40,663 nt of DNA from NCBI GenBank assembly GCA_009887255.1, contig QXXW01000015.1, positions 1 through 40,663 of the forward strand, written 5' to 3'. The position numbers and the translations under genes are program-made. The DNA comes from Candidatus Poseidoniales archaeon (GTDB taxonomy: Archaea > Thermoplasmatota > Poseidoniia > Poseidoniales > Poseidoniaceae). The notes beneath the pieces were generated by a model. It did not search any database, was not told the DNA's origin, and saw only the letters and a program-made list of their open reading frames with translations. This document shows, one piece after another, positions 2,172 to 9,084 of the stretch. Every line of letters begins with the position of its first letter. The stretch's first letter is position 1.

Positions 2172-2525
2172 TCACCATGCACCGTGAACGTATTGACGGC
2201 CACCGTCGGGGTCGCGCTTCATGGCCAGATCATAAATTCGCTCAAATCGGAAAATTCCACTCGAGCATCCTTGTTGCCATTCAAAGCCAAGGGCATAGTT
2301 GCCCACGGTACGGACCTGAGGTTTTTCAGCCGGTAGGGATTCAATTTGTCGTCGTAGCGTCCGGTTCGTGTCGTCGTTGTTGCGCATCGGGGCACACTTG
2401 GCACACGGACAGGCATGGCGTAAATCATCGTAGGAAACAGTGTGCTGATCGCCGTTGGCATACGTTAGCGACATTTCAGTGGTGCCGCGTTCAAGCTTGG
2501 TCATCTTGGGAAGTTCATCAGCCAT
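2172..2525 (-). CDS. DUF971 / GBBH-like N-terminal domain protein
   Basis: LRHACPCAKC and VGNYALGFEW..GCSSGIF motifs; start moved to ATG 2525, preceded by GAGGTG RBS. Confidence 0.85.
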   Translation of the reverse strand: MADELPKMTKLERGTTEMSLTYANGDQHTVSYDDLRHACPCAKCAPMRNNDDTNRTLRRQIESLPAEKPQVRTVGNYALGFEWQQGCSSGIFRFERIYDLAMKRDPDGGRQYVHGAW

Positions 2526-2535
2526 GAGTGGCACC

Positions 2536-3546
2536 TCAGACGATTTCCAAACCACCGGGTCCGTCCTCGGTCAGTTGGGCTTGAATGGCGTCAACGACCT
2601 TGGCAAAAGCAAGTGCTGAAGCGCCATCAGGTTCCGAAACGATTCGGTGAACACCGTCATCACCGCCGCGAACAAAACCTGGGTCAAAGGGAAGGGCACC
2701 CAAGAACGGGACGCCAAATTCTTCTGCCGTGGAACGGCCACCACCTTCTTTGAAAATGTCCAACGTGAAGGAAAAGCCGCCGTCTGGCCCGGATGTAGTG
2801 GTCAAGGTCTTGCCGCCGGGTGCACCGACACTTAGGTCCGTCCCAGGGGCAGTGGTGCCGCTGATCGTGAATCCACTCATGTTCTCAACAACCCCAAGAA
2901 CGGGGACTTTGAGGGACTCGGAGAAGGTGATTGATTTGCGGCTGTCCAAAAGGGCCACCTGTTGGGGCGTGGTCACGATGACCATGCCATCGATGTTGGG
3001 CAGGGATTGCGCAACCGTGAGGGGCTCGTCTGAAGTTCCGGGTGGGAAATCGATGACCAAATAGTCCAACTGACCCCACTCAACGTCACCGATGAACTGT
3101 TGGATGGCCCCCAATTTGATTGGGCCCCGCCAGACGACGGGCGTGTCCTCATCATCGAGCAGGAAAGCCATGCTGATCACCTTGACACCCAAGTGGCCTT
3201 GGGCTGGATGGATTCGTTTGTTTTCAACGTGGAGCCGACGCCCGTCCAGACCCATCATCTTGGGGATGTTGGGGCCGGTGATGTCGATGTCAAGGATCCC
3301 CACTTTGTGGCCCTGCTGGGCCAAGGAAAGAGCAAGACCCGTTGAAACGGTTGATTTCCCAACGCCTCCTTTTCCTGAAAGGACCATGATTTTGTGCTTG
3401 ATGTTGCGGCCAATTTCTTCCATTGACATCTTTCGTTTCATCTGGGCGTATGCCTGTTCCATCTGTTTCTGTTCTTGAGGGCTCGGGCCTTCGGAAGAAG
3501 CCGCTCCGTCGCCTGGAGAGTTGATGGTCACTGGTGAATCCGCCAT
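2536..3546 (-). CDS. mrp: Mrp/NBP35 (ApbC) family P-loop ATPase, Cys-free variant
   Basis: SGKGGVGKST, DIDITGPNIP, VVWRGP, DFPPGTSD, VTTPQ, VVENMS. Confidence 0.92.
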   Translation of the reverse strand: MADSPVTINSPGDGAASSEGPSPQEQKQMEQAYAQMKRKMSMEEIGRNIKHKIMVLSGKGGVGKSTVSTGLALSLAQQGHKVGILDIDITGPNIPKMMGLDGRRLHVENKRIHPAQGHLGVKVISMAFLLDDEDTPVVWRGPIKLGAIQQFIGDVEWGQLDYLVIDFPPGTSDEPLTVAQSLPNIDGMVIVTTPQQVALLDSRKSITFSESLKVPVLGVVENMSGFTISGTTAPGTDLSVGAPGGKTLTTTSGPDGGFSFTLDIFKEGGGRSTAEEFGVPFLGALPFDPGFVRGGDDGVHRIVSEPDGASALAFAKVVDAIQAQLTEDGPGGLEIV

Positions 3547-3588: not shown

Positions 3589-3951
3589 TCATCGTTGGGC
3601 CAGAGAAGCATTGCGTAATTGCCGATCCGTGGCAAGGTGCATCCACAACCAAGCACCCAACACCAGCACCAAAGGCGGCCAGGACCACGCCATTCCACCG
3701 TACGCCCATGCCAATCCAACAGCCAACGGAAGGCTCCCCAAACCAAACACTTGGTTGAGCTGACGTCGCTCATTCAACGAAAGGCTTGGGGCTGTCGCTG
3801 CACCCAACGGTCCAAACATCACAACTTGAATTGAAACGGCGAAAGCCACGATTTGAAACGCCATGTCTGCGTCCAGCGTTGCAGCAACGACATGACCTGC
3901 GAACAGCACGCAAAAGACGCTGTAATGAAGCAACAGCCGGCGCATGCACAT
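3589..3951 (-). CDS. small hypothetical membrane protein (about 4 TM)
   Basis: Hydrophobic 120-aa ORF filling the gap, co-oriented with mrp. Confidence 0.6.
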   Translation of the reverse strand: MCMRRLLLHYSVFCVLFAGHVVAATLDADMAFQIVAFAVSIQVVMFGPLGAATAPSLSLNERRQLNQVFGLGSLPLAVGLAWAYGGMAWSWPPLVLVLGAWLWMHLATDRQLRNASLAQR

Positions 3952-4022: not shown

Positions 4023-4415
4023 ATGAAGATTTTGTTTGTGTGTGTGGGCAATTCATGTCGCTCTCAGATGGCAGAAGGGCTGGCTCGACGCCTTGGCTTT
4101 GAGGCTGATTCTGCTGGAACTCATCCTGCCGCAAAAGTGGCTGTAAACGCTGTGAAGTATTTGGAGTCCGAGGGCATCAACACCGCTGGAATGAAACCAA
4201 AATCGGTGGATCTCTTTGATGCCAAGGAATACGACAAAGTCATCTCGATGGGATGCGGCGTGGCATGCCCCAACATGGACATTGACGAAGACTGGGGCCT
4301 CGAGGATCCGGTCGGTCAATCCTATGAGGTGTACGTGGCAACGGCGAAAACCATTGAACGACGCTTGAATGGATGGCTGGCTCACTCGGACGTCTCGGAT
4401 TCACCTTCGCCTTGA
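4023..4415 (+). CDS. arsC: arsenate reductase ArsC / LMW protein-tyrosine phosphatase family
   Basis: ILFVCVGNSCRSQMAEG (CX5R), distal MGCGVACP and WGLEDP; start at ATG 4023 rather than 3786. Confidence 0.88.
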   Translation: MKILFVCVGNSCRSQMAEGLARRLGFEADSAGTHPAAKVAVNAVKYLESEGINTAGMKPKSVDLFDAKEYDKVISMGCGVACPNMDIDEDWGLEDPVGQSYEVYVATAKTIERRLNGWLAHSDVSDSPSP

Positions 4416-4732
4416 AGATCGATGCGAAGGACACTCACGGTGCGCACCTTACCTTCATCGTTGGTCAATTCCTCAGATTCACAAGATAGACGTTCAATGG
4501 TAACCGTTTCCGGAAGATCTTGTGCGATGTGCCCGCTGCGGCGCCTGCACACTTCAGCCACGTCAACTGCCCGCGATATCGTTGCCCCACGGGCGACGAG
4601 TTGGATGGAGCGGTCACCGCTTTCCATCGCCATCACGACGGCTCGCACGTAGGAATGTAGGGGTTTTTTTCCGATGAAGATTACGCGCCGTTCGCTCATG
4701 TGTACCGGTGTTGTGTTGGTTGCCTCGTCCAT
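4382..4732 (-). CDS. albA: Alba family DNA/RNA-binding chromatin protein
   Basis: IFIGKKPLHSYV, LVARGATISRAVDVAEV, RTVSVLRIDL; start could be 4732 or the next Met. Confidence 0.88.
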   Translation of the reverse strand: MDEATNTTPVHMSERRVIFIGKKPLHSYVRAVVMAMESGDRSIQLVARGATISRAVDVAEVCRRRSGHIAQDLPETVTIERLSCESEELTNDEGKVRTVSVLRIDLQGEGESETSE

Positions 4733-4828: not shown

Positions 4829-4903
4829 TGGTGCGAGCGCCGGGACTCGAACCCGGGTTCAAGCGTTGGCAACGCTCGGTGATAACCACTACACTACGCT
4901 CGC
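4829..4903 (-). tRNA. tRNA-Gly(GCC), intronless, CCA encoded
   Basis: GCGAGCG/CGCTCGC acceptor stem, GAGCG-TTGCCAA-CGCTT anticodon arm, CCGGG-TTCGAGT-CCCGG T arm, ACCA end. Confidence 0.96.
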
Positions 4904-4984: not shown

Positions 4985-7900
4985 TTATTCCATGCCGAAG
5001 CGGTCCCTGCCATTGCCGTCGTTGGCGTCCTTGCCAGAACTTCTCGTCATGGTGACAACGGCGATGACGGCTCCGATCAACACAAGCAGACCGATACCCC
5101 CCAACATCTGAGCGCTGATTCCACCCTCGGTGTCCTGGGTTGCATCGCCCTCCACAAGGGCAACGGTTGCTGAAGAGAGACTCAATTCACCAAAGGTGTC
5201 GGTGGCGCGAAGCCTGATTTCATGTGTACCCAACGGCGTCCCAGACCGAATGGACAATGGAACAGAGTACACGCCGTCACCAGCCGTTTGGTCTCCGTCG
5301 TTGCCATCGTCTCGCATTGGGACCCACTGAGGAGCCCCCACGGCGTTGAACACGCCCAAGTTGGCCTCAACGCGATACACGCCGTCCGGATCCGTAACGT
5401 TCACCGTGAAAGAAATGGCCTCATCCACCGTTTTGGTGACCTCCATGCGAACGGGTGGCGTTATGGTGGGCCGGTCGTTGAGCACCGTGATCTCAATGGG
5501 TTGTGGTTCGCTAAAATCAAGATGGTGTGGACCTCGTTGCTCGTCACCTGCCGGTCCAATGGGCTCAGCCCAAGCCGAATACCGCTGAGTGGCTCCAAGG
5601 TTATCCGTTGCGACCAGCGTCAGCGATTGAACACCGGGGGAGAGCCCCGAAGGTGTGTCCACCATCGCCGTCCAGACATCGCCGTTTTCAACCAAGGGGA
5701 CATCAATTCCTCCGTATGTGCGGAGGTCCAACGAAAGAGACGCAACTCCATGACCGTCGTAGGCTTCAACGTTCACCACCAAGGCCGTGCCCCGTTCCAA
5801 TGTTTGTGGTGCAAAAATCACGTTCGTCAATCTGGGAGCTTGATTCACGATGGTCACCGTACTCTCCATCGAAGTTGTTGCATCGAAGGCGTCAATGGCC
5901 GTGGCTGTAAGGTTCATCGTCCCAATTTGTAGCCCGGGGACGATCAGCAATCCTGTGAACACGTCGTCGCCAATGGTTGAATCACCGTCGAGACCACGGT
6001 CGTTGAGGGACAACGTCCCACCACCCAACGGGGTGAGATCAACAGTGACGGATTCGACGTTGTAGTCTGGGTCCAGAAGTTGAACCTCCACATGGGCAAG
6101 CGAACCGCCTTCACCAACGACCAAGCCCTCTCGCAAATTCATCGATTCAATGATGGGGGCGGCGTTTTCTCCAGCGGTGACGATTTGCGGGGAAACAACT
6201 CGTTCAAGCACTTGAGATTCGTTAAGGACAATGGTTTCTTCAGCTTCGCCAAACGGTACGCTCAACTGGCGATGAACGGAAGACAACAGCCCTCCAAGCG
6301 GCCCTGAAGAAACAATTCGTCCAGAGGCGTTGCCCGTTGCATCCCCCTCATCTCCTCCGTAGGTACCAACCCACGCCACCACAGAGAAATTACGGCCGTC
6401 TCGAACGTCAAACGTGTTGGTGCCAGCCATAACATCCAGAGACAAGCCCTCTTGTGCGTTCAACACAAGGCGGTCTCCAGTACGCATGGGGATGGGCATG
6501 AGGCCGGTTTCTCGACCCACCGTGAGGTTGCCCAATGTCTGCTCAACCTCGGGCGCAGAGGGATTGCGCTGGAGGGGGCTGTTCGCTGGGCGCTCGTCCC
6601 CTTCCGAGGCGTCGGCCCCGGTTTCTCTCCAAACCAGTCGCACCGTCCGGTTGTCCCAGTCGGCGTGAACCACTTGGTAATCCCACGTTTCATTGTGGGT
6701 TGCACCCACGCCAGCACCGTCGAAGAAGTTCCCCCCGTTCAGACCTGTGATGTTGAACCAGGACTCCTGATGAATGACGTTGACGTCAAATTCTTCTCCT
6801 TCGGCATTCGCCTGAGTCCCCGTTTCTTCAATGGAACGGACCACGCCGAACGTCCCTTGAACGTCACCGCTGAGAACGCCATCCACGTGAAGGTCGTCGA
6901 TGAGTGTGGTTCCATTGACGGTACGGCTGTGAAGATCGAGAATGGTTCCATTGACTTGGAGTGAAGCGTTTTCGTCCTGGTCTTCAAAGCCAAATGTTCC
7001 CGAGCCGTAAAGTTCCTCATGCTGAAGGACACGGGACCCGTTTTCCCACCGTTCAAGAGAGGAGAATCCATCCAGCGATACGTCTAGGCGCGTACCGTCT
7101 TCGACAAGAACAAAGTCTGCCATCGCCTCAAATTGTGTGTGTTGGAGGATACGACTCCCAGCCACGTCGTGGTATTCCAAGAAAAACACAGCCAATTCTC
7201 CATCGATGTTGAGTGAGGAATTCTCAACACTGCTGTCGCTGACGTTGAGCACTCCCGTCGCCTCGAGCAAGAGTTGCTCTTCAATGACGCCTTCAATCAT
7301 CGACCGATTCAGCATCGCTTGGGAAACGTCCGCGTGAATCACAGTCAACACCCCGTCTTGATTCACGGTGGTGTTGAGGTCACCGTAACCTCTGGCATCG
7401 AAGACTTGTGAAGTCAGCACGCCCCCCACGATGGTTTCGTTTTTCCAAAGTTGAGTCAGCACCAAGTTCAAGTCCGTTGTGGTGCCGTTTGTGCTCTCCA
7501 ATGTGCGGAATGCACCGTTGCCAAGTTCCCAGGAATGCACCGTTTCACCGATGCGTTGTTGCCATCCCTGGCCGTCAAAATTCAAACCAAACCGTTGGGG
7601 GCCGTCTTCGGTGGTGTAGGCTTGTTCAGTGGACCATGAGGTGCTCAAAAGAACCTCATGGTCGTCCATGGGCTGGTTCCACTGGCCAACCGTGAGCGGG
7701 CGAGAGACAACAACGGGTGCAACAAGATCCTCGCCGTCAACCGCGGTGAGGTTCACGTTCACGACGGCCTGCTCACCCCATTCAAGAACATGGTCAAAGG
7801 TGATCGTGGCCGTTCGACCATGCTCAGAAGCGCCCCAAACAACTGCAGAAGGGGACAGAGGGGTCGTCAGCACATCCGAATCGTACCTCGCATCAAAGGT

Positions 7901-8080
7901 GTAACTGCCGTTTGTGTCAAATTGAACGAGGTACTGGTTGAGCACACCGCCGTTACCATCGTCCACCCAATGGGTGGAAACCGTGAACGTCGGTCCTTCA
8001 GCAGAAGTGGCGTTGACCGGAAGAGTGGAGGCAAGGAGCACCAGCACCGTCAACACGGGAAGGGCTGTCCGCTTGAGCAT
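4985..8080 (-). CDS. large secreted, C-terminally membrane-anchored acidic beta-rich surface protein with two choice-of-anchor-X-like motifs
   Basis: Signal peptide MLKRTALPVLTVLVLLASTLPVNA (start 8080); LNDRGLDGDSTIGDDVFTG and MRDDGNDGDQTAGDGVYS; Ig-like repeats; C-terminal TM. Confidence 0.78.
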   Translation of the reverse strand: MLKRTALPVLTVLVLLASTLPVNATSAEGPTFTVSTHWVDDGNGGVLNQYLVQFDTNGSYTFDARYDSDVLTTPLSPSAVVWGASEHGRTATITFDHVLEWGEQAVVNVNLTAVDGEDLVAPVVVSRPLTVGQWNQPMDDHEVLLSTSWSTEQAYTTEDGPQRFGLNFDGQGWQQRIGETVHSWELGNGAFRTLESTNGTTTDLNLVLTQLWKNETIVGGVLTSQVFDARGYGDLNTTVNQDGVLTVIHADVSQAMLNRSMIEGVIEEQLLLEATGVLNVSDSSVENSSLNIDGELAVFFLEYHDVAGSRILQHTQFEAMADFVLVEDGTRLDVSLDGFSSLERWENGSRVLQHEELYGSGTFGFEDQDENASLQVNGTILDLHSRTVNGTTLIDDLHVDGVLSGDVQGTFGVVRSIEETGTQANAEGEEFDVNVIHQESWFNITGLNGGNFFDGAGVGATHNETWDYQVVHADWDNRTVRLVWRETGADASEGDERPANSPLQRNPSAPEVEQTLGNLTVGRETGLMPIPMRTGDRLVLNAQEGLSLDVMAGTNTFDVRDGRNFSVVAWVGTYGGDEGDATGNASGRIVSSGPLGGLLSSVHRQLSVPFGEAEETIVLNESQVLERVVSPQIVTAGENAAPIIESMNLREGLVVGEGGSLAHVEVQLLDPDYNVESVTVDLTPLGGGTLSLNDRGLDGDSTIGDDVFTGLLIVPGLQIGTMNLTATAIDAFDATTSMESTVTIVNQAPRLTNVIFAPQTLERGTALVVNVEAYDGHGVASLSLDLRTYGGIDVPLVENGDVWTAMVDTPSGLSPGVQSLTLVATDNLGATQRYSAWAEPIGPAGDEQRGPHHLDFSEPQPIEITVLNDRPTITPPVRMEVTKTVDEAISFTVNVTDPDGVYRVEANLGVFNAVGAPQWVPMRDDGNDGDQTAGDGVYSVPLSIRSGTPLGTHEIRLRATDTFGELSLSSATVALVEGDATQDTEGGISAQMLGGIGLLVLIGAVIAVVTMTRSSGKDANDGNGRDRFGME

Positions 8081-8127
8081 GGTTGATTTTGAGGGCTGGT
8101 CCCCTTCAAGACTTTCTATGCCACGAT

Positions 8128-9084
8128 TCAGGCCAAGTCCAGAACATAACCGAACAACAACGGAAGAACGATGGTAGCATCGCTGTTGATGTTGAATCTT
8201 GGTGTGCTCACACTCAACTTCCCCCATGAGATTTTTTCATTCGGTGGGGCCCCAGAGTAGCCGCCGTACGAAGCCGTAGCGTCCGTAATTTGGGCAAACC
8301 ACGACCACAACGGCACCGCTGTCTTGAGGTCTTGATGAAGAAGAGGCACAACGCAAATCGGGAAATCTCCAGCTATACCGCCGCCGACTTGCAAGAACGC
8401 CAAAGGTTCGGTGTTCGAACGATAGAATTCAGTGAGGTGGCGCATGTAATGGACACCTCCGAGAACAGCGTTGGGGTTCAACGTTCCTTCCAATGAACGT
8501 GCTGCGAAGATGTTGCCAAGGGTTGAATCTTCCCACCCTGGCACGTAGAGTGGTAAACCGACTTCGGCAGCTGCCAACAACCACGAATGTGCCGGGTTCG
8601 CTTGGTAAACATCGCTCAATTCACCCGATGTGAGAAGGTCATAGAGGAAAAGATGAGGGAGTTGGGCGCTGGTTTCGTCGACATCGCCCCAGCGGTCCAT
8701 GAGGTGGCCTTCGATGGCCCGGATGGCCTCTTCCTCAGGAATGCAGGTGTCTGTTACTCGGTTGAGATGACGTTGAAACAACGCTTCATCATCAGCGGGA
8801 GCGAGGTCCTCGTGACTGGAAATGTGCTCGTAGTGGTGGTGGGCGACGAGATTGAACATGTCTTCCTCAAGATTGGCCCCCGTGCAACTGATGGCTGCAA
8901 TGTGTCCCGCACGGATCATGGGTGCAAGGGTACGCCCGATTTCTGCCGTGCTCATTGCTCCGGCCAGCGTCAAGAACACCCTGCCCCCAGACTCGATCAA
9001 GGCCGTCAACGATGATGCTGTCCGTTGGACGGTTCCTGCGTTGAAATGTCGGTAATGCTCGTCAACAAAGGCTCGAACGGTCAT
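8128..9084 (-). CDS. deoxyhypusine synthase-like protein, bacterial type (possible homospermidine synthase)
   Basis: YRHFNA, LAGAMSTAEIG, SCTGANLEED, GGGIAGDFPIC, SYGGYSGAPPNEKISWGK. Confidence 0.88.
   Translation of the reverse strand: MTVRAFVDEHYRHFNAGTVQRTASSLTALIESGGRVFLTLAGAMSTAEIGRTLAPMIRAGHIAAISCTGANLEEDMFNLVAHHHYEHISSHEDLAPADDEALFQRHLNRVTDTCIPEEEAIRAIEGHLMDRWGDVDETSAQLPHLFLYDLLTSGELSDVYQANPAHSWLLAAAEVGLPLYVPGWEDSTLGNIFAARSLEGTLNPNAVLGGVHYMRHLTEFYRSNTEPLAFLQVGGGIAGDFPICVVPLLHQDLKTAVPLWSWFAQITDATASYGGYSGAPPNEKISWGKLSVSTPRFNINSDATIVLPLLFGYVLDLA

Follow-up and report, generated by a model that had tools for sequence, protein, structure and literature searches.

Two adjacent genes on the minus strand of a 40,663-nt stretch of DNA from a Candidatus Poseidoniales archaeon (Marine Group II; contig QXXW01000015.1; the whole stretch is referred to as the window) encode an Mrp/NBP35-family P-loop ATPase that does not contain a single Cys and a DUF971 protein that contains four. 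In the ATPase the loop that carries the CxxC motif of its relatives is replaced by what is predicted to be a folded four-strand β-module. We tentatively read the pair as a two-protein Mrp-DUF971 module in which DUF971 would hold a metal or a cluster and Mrp would provide ATP-driven switching, a reading that we regard as possible rather than probable. The feature is real, it is conserved, and we see in it a variant form of an established partnership, not a new type of system. A functional link between Mrp and DUF971 is already in print, and CxxC-less Mrps are common; new beyond the initial annotation of the pair, which was made from the sequence alone, are the folded insert, the fusions in the sister order, the tree, the distribution and gene order across the order, the phylum-wide pattern, the variants in Planctomycetota and soil, the solved DUF971 proteins without CxCxxC, which count against our reading, and the synteny with a PAP2 gene.

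Replacement of the CxxC loop in Mrp

The Mrp family is defined by a deviant Walker A motif and by a CxxC that is essential for function and bridges a [4Fe-4S] cluster, according to the accessible text of PMC6345978. The window Mrp matches Pfam PF10609, the family of NUBPL/ParA-type iron-transfer P-loop NTPases (E 1.3e-89, 300.2 bits, gathering cut-off 27.1) in two stretches, residues 48-229 and approximately 264-298, and misses the NCBIfam equivalog cut-offs of ApbC (NF008669, 207.6 vs 348) and MrpORP (NF041136, 320.7 vs 450). Its segment GKGGVGKS at residues 58-65 fits the family motif GKGGhGK[ST] as given in the accessible text of the same source. The initial annotation had described a protein of 336 residues without Cys and with intact ATPase motifs, and this is borne out both by the translation and by alignment A1, which comprises 89 Mrp rows (85 of the 150 representative matches were taken, fragments and tandem forms being dropped by eye). 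All columns that are invariant in A1 are kept in the window Mrp, among them K59, G60-G63, K64, D86, D88, D166, P168-G170 and E221-N222-M223.

The CxxC that follows ENMS in the family is absent from the window Mrp. HMMER alignments to 2ph1, 3kb1 and Cfd1 (6g2g) break off at residue 227-228 and are taken up again at residue 262-264, a gap that is filled in these solved relatives by only about 10 residues, CxxC among them. Likewise, CxxC-type relatives have about nine residues, xCPxCGxxx, at the place of T227-L262, and counted from the V of VENM to the FxxGGG motif, the window Mrp has 45 residues where CxxC types have 18. An AlphaFold2 model calculated on the 89-row alignment has a mean predicted local distance difference test score (pLDDT) of 89.5 and a predicted template modelling score (pTM) of 0.86. 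The insert is modelled as four strands (residues 226-231, 237-242, 246-251 and 257-262) and as a block with pLDDT values of 92-97. According to this model the insert is a folded four-strand β-module that replaces the CxxC loop. As the protein has no thiol and the CxxC loop is replaced, the window Mrp should be unable to bridge a [4Fe-4S] cluster in the known way.

A Foldseek search with the Mrp model placed 8zkc (ApbC, E 7e-24), 2ph1 (AF2382) and 6g2g (Cfd1) on top, directly followed by ATPase-type HypB of Thermococcus; HypB (3vx3) and the HypAB-Ni complex (5aun) compare with the model at a TM score of 0.63 when normalised to the query and of 0.86-0.88 when normalised to the target. The CxxC loops of solved Mrp-family dimers come together at the two-fold axis, so that the two inserts of an Mrp dimer should lie side by side.

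Within the order, which consists of the families f1 (the window's own), f2 and f3 (which we take to be Thalassarchaeaceae), the length of the insert and its pattern of Gly and Pro are conserved, but its sequence is subject to drift. Between families the insert is 46% identical vs 78% for the core, and within f1 the values are 55% vs 93%. The core, being 78% identical between families, is thus under selection, and the comparison of orthologues across the order revealed no conserved His or Cys within the insert.

The Cys residues of DUF971

The initial annotation had also reported a DUF971 gene 10 nt downstream with a CPCAKC motif and another Cys. The stop codon of Mrp (TGA, 2536-2538) and the ATG of DUF971 (2523-2525) are indeed exactly 10 nt apart, and the four residues are C39, C41, C44 and C87. 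The GGTG in the spacer is a candidate ribosome-binding site. We prefer the ATG over an upstream GTG at 2555, based on the N-termini of 38 aligned relatives. The protein matches Pfam PF06155 with an E value of 2.8e-15 (57.3 bits, gathering cut-off 22.8).

The model of the DUF971 protein has a pLDDT of 86, and Foldseek found 2l6n, 2l6p and 3luu as its best matches, followed by the N-domain of BBOX1 (probability 0.84-0.90). CPCAKC aligns with CPCAEC of 3luu and with NCPCSDC of human GBBH (4bg1), and C87 takes the place of the His in the DGH motif that is found in 3luu, 2l6n, 2l6p and the fusion proteins of the sister order described below. In the loci read, none of the three families of the order has lost any of the four Cys residues. 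The DUF971 proteins of f1 and f2 end with the tail DPDxGxPYVHGAW, having a terminal Trp; the DUF971 of f3, encoded apart from Mrp, has no such tail. The tail could be a docking peptide.

Conservation and gene order in Poseidoniales

Full-length Mrp orthologues with 63-92% identity were found in 41/41 genomes of a first draw. In the order Mrp is present in 147/151 genomes (E 1e-30 or better) and DUF971 in 150/151, with one match per genome, and all 100 candidates listed in a homologue search with DUF971 were close Poseidoniales relatives. Reading of 30 loci from 30 genomes gave 28 Mrps without Cys; the other two are L034, with a single Cys at position 75, and L029, with two Cys that both lie in a frameshifted tail. 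In a second batch of loci the Mrps of L037 and L043 have one Cys each. The orthologues read across the order do not retain the lost motif, as no CxxC is found in the Mrp loop among the 30 loci, nor in L037 and L043. On the sequences read, the Cys-free state is not a product of chance, and the loss of CxxC holds across the order.

In f1 the DUF971 gene lies directly downstream of Mrp on the same strand in 72 of the 73 genomes that have both, as judged by comparing the match tables of Mrp and DUF971 by eye, the exception (G109) being fragmentary. The spacing of approximately 10-70 nt corresponds to an operon-type linkage. The linkage in relatives and the co-occurrence of Cys-less Mrp with DUF971, which the initial annotation had brought up, thus hold in part: co-occurrence is near-universal in the order, while adjacency is confined to f1 and fails in two of the three families (0/73 genomes of f3 and f2).

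In 37 of 38 loci of the order, Mrp or Mrp-DUF971 has as its downstream neighbour a homologue of the PAP2-domain protein that is encoded next to the pair in the window. In all five f3 loci the PAP2 gene is located directly after Mrp, and in f1 DUF971 sits between Mrp and this otherwise conserved neighbour, tight against Mrp. DUF971 may either have moved into this spot (in f1) or out of it (in f3).

This synteny bears on the idea that Mrp was recruited outside Fe-S biogenesis, either for MinD/ParA-like positioning or for a membrane or envelope role together with the PAP2 neighbour. The PAP2 gene accompanies Mrp also in f3, whose DUF971 is encoded at another place, the CxxC that defines the family has been lost, and MinD, FlhG and FleN, which rank lower in the fold list, have such roles. 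However, the window Mrp is closer to ApbC/Cfd1 (E ~1e-54, with 8zkc, 2ph1 and 6g2g first) than to MinD (E ~1e-12), it is the sole Mrp found in an aerobic organism with a SUF system, and DUF971 has been placed at exactly this spot in f1. We therefore consider a role outside Fe-S biogenesis improbable. The window genome, which is 82% complete, contains SufB/D and two Nfu-like genes, and the Mrp described here is the only true Mrp found in it; an A-type carrier and DUF59 (PF01883) were not found in this genome at that completeness.

Two side observations concern individual loci. In the f3 and f2 loci L054-L063 DUF971 lies beside a homologue of a protein of approximately 470-480 residues with an acidic N-terminal extension, which was identified as the pseudouridine synthase Pus10 by Pfam in L054 and recognised by eye from the N-termini in the others. 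Some Mrp orthologues look interrupted: that of L029 (G007:C8) is spread over two frames (residues 1-291 and 261-336), the match in G041:C1 stops at residue 296, and that in G166:C197 contains two internal TGA codons. These cases may be assembly errors or decay.

Fusions in the sister order and the Mrp tree

In genomes of the sister order, which belongs to the same class and is presumably Marine Group III, the window Mrp found matches only over residues ~45-231, located in open frames of 292-536 aa. Six of these loci were fetched, five of which carry a complete DUF59-Mrp-DUF971 protein, the sixth being cut by the contig end. Pfam identified PF01883, PF10609 and PF06155 in 3/3 proteins tested, which is the architecture of HCF101, and in this respect the comparison with HCF101 drawn in the initial annotation was apt. 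The fusions of the genera g23 and g24 keep ENMAYYHCPECGH as well as CPCAGC...DGH. Those of genus g25 (L048 and L051) do not have the CxxC (ENMAGFTPPGSEEIFHIFGEGGG); the DUF971 domain of L051 keeps CPCAHC and has lost the His, and L048 ends just before the motif. To judge by their sequences, CxxC disappeared independently in the g25 fusions, making this the second case of such a loss beside a DUF971 that carries Cys.

In a sample of the phylum DUF971 is found in 24 of 121 genomes, namely in all 22 Poseidoniales and in G169 and G252, and in 0/97 of the others. The DUF971 of G169 was shown to be part of a fusion, and that of G252 lies in a frame with Mrp motifs and CxCxxC, identified by motifs only. 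In five other Thermoplasmatota genomes from five families 5/5 Mrps keep ENMSGFxCPHCG, with up to 59% identity to the window Mrp. Taken together with the distribution of DUF971, this indicates that the loss of CxxC coincides with the presence of DUF971 in the lineage.

A maximum likelihood tree of Mrp was calculated from 81 rows after removal of the insert columns, using a quick search with no bootstrap; the near-identical f1 rows L008, L009, L010, L012, L016, L023, L028 and L043 had been dropped. The tree consists of two halves, and the split between them has a support of 95 in the Shimodaira-Hasegawa-like approximate likelihood ratio test (SH-aLRT). The Mrp clade of Poseidoniales (support 99) groups with the ENMSGFxCPHCG types, including those of other Thermoplasmatota, and the sister-order fusions (support 100) group with the DUF59/ApbC types. 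As the Mrp part of the fusions lies in the other half of the tree, i.e. in another Mrp subfamily, we reject the possibility that the window pair arose by fission of an HCF101-type fusion, and the 'split HCF101' of the initial annotation is not supported as a history. The window Mrp most likely descends from an ordinary archaeal Mrp, the CxxC having been lost in the lineage that holds DUF971.

Insert-bearing Mrps elsewhere

For a wider view of the family we used the 150 best representatives at 50% identity. Most of them carry CxxC and several do not, and three have a β-rich insert at the same spot as the window Mrp: P0010, which has neither DUF59 nor any Cys, and P0069 and P0074, both with an N-terminal DUF59. 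Relatives of P0074 are present in 80 loci (L070-L149), nearly all labelled Planctomycetota, including the sequenced strain Rohdeia mirabilis Pla163 (L145), and 80/80 of these encode a DUF59-Mrp with a β-rich insert of 43-49 residues and no CxxC. A large Planctomycetota clade thus seems to have the insert-type DUF59-Mrp as its standard form of Mrp. In 4/5 such genomes DUF971 is encoded elsewhere; its motif is CPCARC or CPCAHC there, and the usual His is in place. Relatives of P0010 are found on contigs of soil metagenomes. One of these, L150, carries response regulators and a hybrid histidine kinase, which suggests a bacterial origin; no Fe-S genes were seen on it.

Grouping all insert-bearing Mrps (16 rows) into one clade is disfavoured, as the log-likelihood is 50.5 lower and the p value of the approximately unbiased (AU) test is 0.0199; the test used the quick tree and a group defined by the trait itself, so that it is only indicative. 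With this restriction it suggests that the insert arose or moved more than once. One might extend the idea to a general function of the inserts, namely that they are a protein substitute for the bridging cluster, meeting at the dimer axis and clamping the dimer permanently. Mrp would then be a pure ATP-driven loader of a Cys4 DUF971 in a delivery of Fe-S or Fe in the style of HypB/HypA, and this arrangement would have more than one origin (in Poseidoniales, in the soil P0010 type and in Planctomycetota). We regard this extension as rather unlikely.

The Planctomycetota proteins are also relevant to another explanation, according to which the Mrp dimer remains a carrier of a cluster or of Fe by means of small-molecule thiols, non-Cys residues or a partner other than DUF971, with DUF971 being only loosely connected. 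Insert-type Mrps of Planctomycetota keep DUF59, and the DUF59 of P0074 has a Cys in TTPACP, so that a cluster could sit elsewhere in these proteins. Plastid HCF101, too, binds a [4Fe-4S] cluster without a CxxC, through other Cys residues, as reported in the accessible part of PMC2805927. The window Mrp, in contrast, has neither Cys nor DUF59, PF01883 was not found in the 82% complete genome, and the insert has no conserved His or Cys. This renders such a carrier highly improbable in the window pair.

A possible two-protein module

In the reading that we tentatively favour, the window Mrp would be an active-looking dimeric P-loop ATPase that no longer bridges a cluster, and the only thiolate site of the pair is the Cys4 of DUF971, formed by CxCxxC and the Cys in place of the His. 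DUF971 would hold a metal species for transfer, which could be an Fe-S cluster or Fe. The Mrp dimer would bind DUF971, and its ATP cycle would toggle DUF971 between loading and release to client apoproteins, similar to the MinD/Mrp-type ATPase HypB of Thermococcus, which acts on the small Cys-rich metallochaperone HypA. For this pair the accessible text of PMC13202556 states that ATP-bound MinD-type HypB changes the conformation of HypA. In favour of the module are the retained ATPase residues of an Mrp that has no Cys, the concurrence of CxxC loss and DUF971 in the lineage, the linkage of the genes in f1, the four retained Cys of DUF971, the fusion of both domains in the sister order and the published cofitness.

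A predicted complex of two copies of Mrp (residues 41-336) with one DUF971 scored 0.44 (0.44, 0.29 and 0.54 in the single runs), vs 0.02 for the best of three controls; the runs share at least 73% of their contacts, and the pLDDT of the partner is at least 79. Among the calibration cases, 58 of 80 solved complexes came up to a score of 0.44, as did 2 of 110 mismatched pairs. Among those reaching this mark with a score of 0.60 or under were only 7 of the 80 solved complexes but both passing mismatches, and the run differs from the calibration in using its own alignments and a 2:1 set-up. The prediction weakly supports physical binding of Mrp and DUF971, and likewise a supply of cluster ligands in trans, which the initial annotation had put forward. 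Modelling of the complex, envisaged in the initial annotation, thus gave an ambivalent answer: the score is far above that of the best control, but it lies in a band in which, according to the tool, wrong guesses outnumber right ones unless the interaction was already likely.

This position of the score weighs against the proposed module, and so do several other observations. The genes are adjacent in 0/71 f3 and 0/2 f2 genomes, lying on different contigs or 120-134 kb apart (G037, G039, G078, G124). The insert evolves fast (55% identity within f1 vs 93% in the core), which is not as expected of a precise docking surface. In the wider family it is common for Mrps to lack the CxxC or even any Cys (for example P0060, P0070, P0076, P0100 and P0115). 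A hidden Markov model (HMM) built from the mostly archaeal DUF971 alignment A2 detected DUF971 within up to 6 kb on either side in 0/80 Planctomycetota loci and 0/11 metagenome loci with insert-type Mrps, and one of the five Planctomycetota genomes checked showed no DUF971 at all. The structures 2l6n and 2l6p do not have CxCxxC, containing SPSAEV instead of CPCAxC while keeping DGH; as this applies to two of three solved standalone DUF971 proteins, the Cys triad is optional in the family. Both presumably originate from Shewanella and Pseudomonas, genera in which DUF971 is cofit with Mrp, and if so, DUF971 can probably work with Mrp without these Cys residues and the partnership is not generally Cys-based. 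Finally, the motif of human GBBH is a mononuclear structural Zn site made up of three Cys and one His, and by analogy the Cys4 version of DUF971 may simply bind Zn.

Part of these observations would also fit a cluster-free Mrp, i.e. an assembly or targeting ATPase that acts as ATP-dependent adaptor or chaperone and joins apo-clients with Nfu-like or SufBCD carriers, DUF971 being an adaptor stabilised by Zn with a structural Cys4. The alignment of CxCxxC with the GBBH motif agrees with this explanation, as do the absence of these Cys residues from 2l6n and 2l6p in spite of the cofitness in their presumed source genera, the unlinked genes in f3 and f2, the many Cys-free Mrps elsewhere, and the presence of two Nfu-like genes and SufB/D in the genome. 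However, the change from His to Cys and the strict retention of four Cys residues while Mrp shed all of its own suggest a role beyond fold stability, and the literature examined, as far as its text was accessible, contains no Mrp-family member shown to act without a bound cluster. We consider the cluster-free adaptor, the strongest of the rival explanations, somewhat unlikely.

Relation to known systems

The window pair shares its Mrp and DUF971 modules with HCF101 and the DUF59-Mrp-DUF971 fusions, and plastid HCF101 has no CxxC either. Unlike HCF101, it consists of two genes and contains no DUF59 (PF01883) in either protein, its Mrp has no Cys, carries the 36-residue β-insert and belongs to another Mrp subfamily, and the fourth position of its DUF971 site is Cys, not His. 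The accessible text of PMC7980591 describes the CxCxxC of DUF971 as conserved in most forms of HCF101 and mentions bacterial fusions of the PVC group. With ApbC, Mrp, Nbp35, Cfd1 and Ind1 (8zkc, 6g2g, 2ph1, 3kb1) the window Mrp has in common the fold, the deviant Walker A motif, Walker B, the ENMS strand and DIFxxGGG, with 36-39% identity to the solved members, whereas it has a folded insert instead of the CxxC.

HypB/HypA of Thermococcus kodakarensis resembles the pair in combining an Mrp-like dimeric ATPase with a small Cys-rich metallochaperone, and ATPase-type HypB is not known to have a metal site of its own. The identity is only 29-30% and the partner here is DUF971, not HypA; the likeness is to be taken as a working analogy and not as family membership.

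Standalone bacterial DUF971 proteins belong to the same Pfam family and have a partner of the same family. In the accessible text of Price et al. (bioRxiv 10.1101/072470) DUF971 shows cofitness with Mrp, BolA and YggX in Shewanella and Pseudomonas and is named an FeS cluster maintenance protein. The distribution of Cys residues differs between the two systems: 2l6n and 2l6p are without CxCxxC, and in the window the situation is reversed, with no Cys in Mrp and four in DUF971. The Mrp of Shewanella/Pseudomonas-type bacteria keeps its CxxC. The literature searched, from which subscription journals and supplements were mostly out of reach, gave no description of a Cys-free Mrp, of the β-insert, or of Mrp in Marine Group II.

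Features of the window and neighbouring genes

The coordinates of the pair, its motifs and its direct neighbours are listed in Table 1. The PAP2 domain of the downstream membrane protein is N-terminal, and the protein has a large C-terminal part besides. The hydrophobic ORF upstream of Mrp has tblastn matches in 28/38 loci of the order. Further upstream follow a gene for a low-molecular-weight phosphatase/ArsC-like protein (PF01451; 3906-4412, plus strand) and, all on the minus strand, a small, putatively Alba-like gene (4382-4732), a tRNA-Gly(GCC) (4829-4903) and a gene for a probable surface protein of 1080 aa (4985-8227).

Table 1. Positions of the Mrp-DUF971 pair, its motifs and its neighbours in the window
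Feature	Position	Strand	Remarks
Mrp/NBP35-family P-loop ATPase gene	2536-3546	minus	336 aa + stop, 0 Cys; PF10609
Deviant Walker A SGKGGVGKS, residues 57-65	3352-3378	minus	columns K59, G60-G63, K64 invariant in alignment A1
36-residue insert T227-L262, between ENMSGF and DIFKEGGG	2761-2868	minus	HMMER breaks and AlphaFold2
10-nt spacer, Mrp stop to DUF971 ATG	2526-2535	minus	contains GGTG; from the sequence
DUF971/GBBH-like_N gene	2172-2525	minus	117 aa + stop; PF06155
CPCAKC motif of DUF971 (C39, C41, C44)	2394-2411	minus	three Cys invariant in alignment A2
C87, fourth Cys of DUF971, in GCSSG motif	2265-2267	minus	at the His (DGH) position of other DUF971
C-terminal tail of DUF971, DPDGGRQYVHGAW	2175-2213	minus	conserved in f1 and f2, missing in f3
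PAP2-domain membrane protein gene, next downstream	32-2116	minus	694 aa; PF14378 + PF01569
Hydrophobic ORF upstream of Mrp	3589-3951	minus	120 aa; no Pfam family

Four RNA-labelled runs from two studies contain contigs of 171-284 nt that match parts of the Mrp gene with 0-2 differing letters each. None of the contigs of these four runs covers DUF971 or the Mrp-DUF971 junction, and such contigs cannot show a transcript.

Significance

Fe-S carriers of the Mrp/NBP35 type are nearly universal, and their mechanism is attributed to the cluster bridged by CxxC. The role of DUF971, also as the C-terminal domain of HCF101, is called elusive (PMC7980591) or undefined (PMC11838916) in the accessible texts. 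In abundant ocean archaea an ATPase without a thiol is combined here with a partner that has four, and therefore each activity can be assigned to one protein in vitro, making the two-gene pair a natural system for asking what DUF971 does. If the multiple origin of the insert holds, loss of the CxxC loop would be a recurrent evolutionary route and not a one-off decay, and the annotation of Mrp homologues would change.

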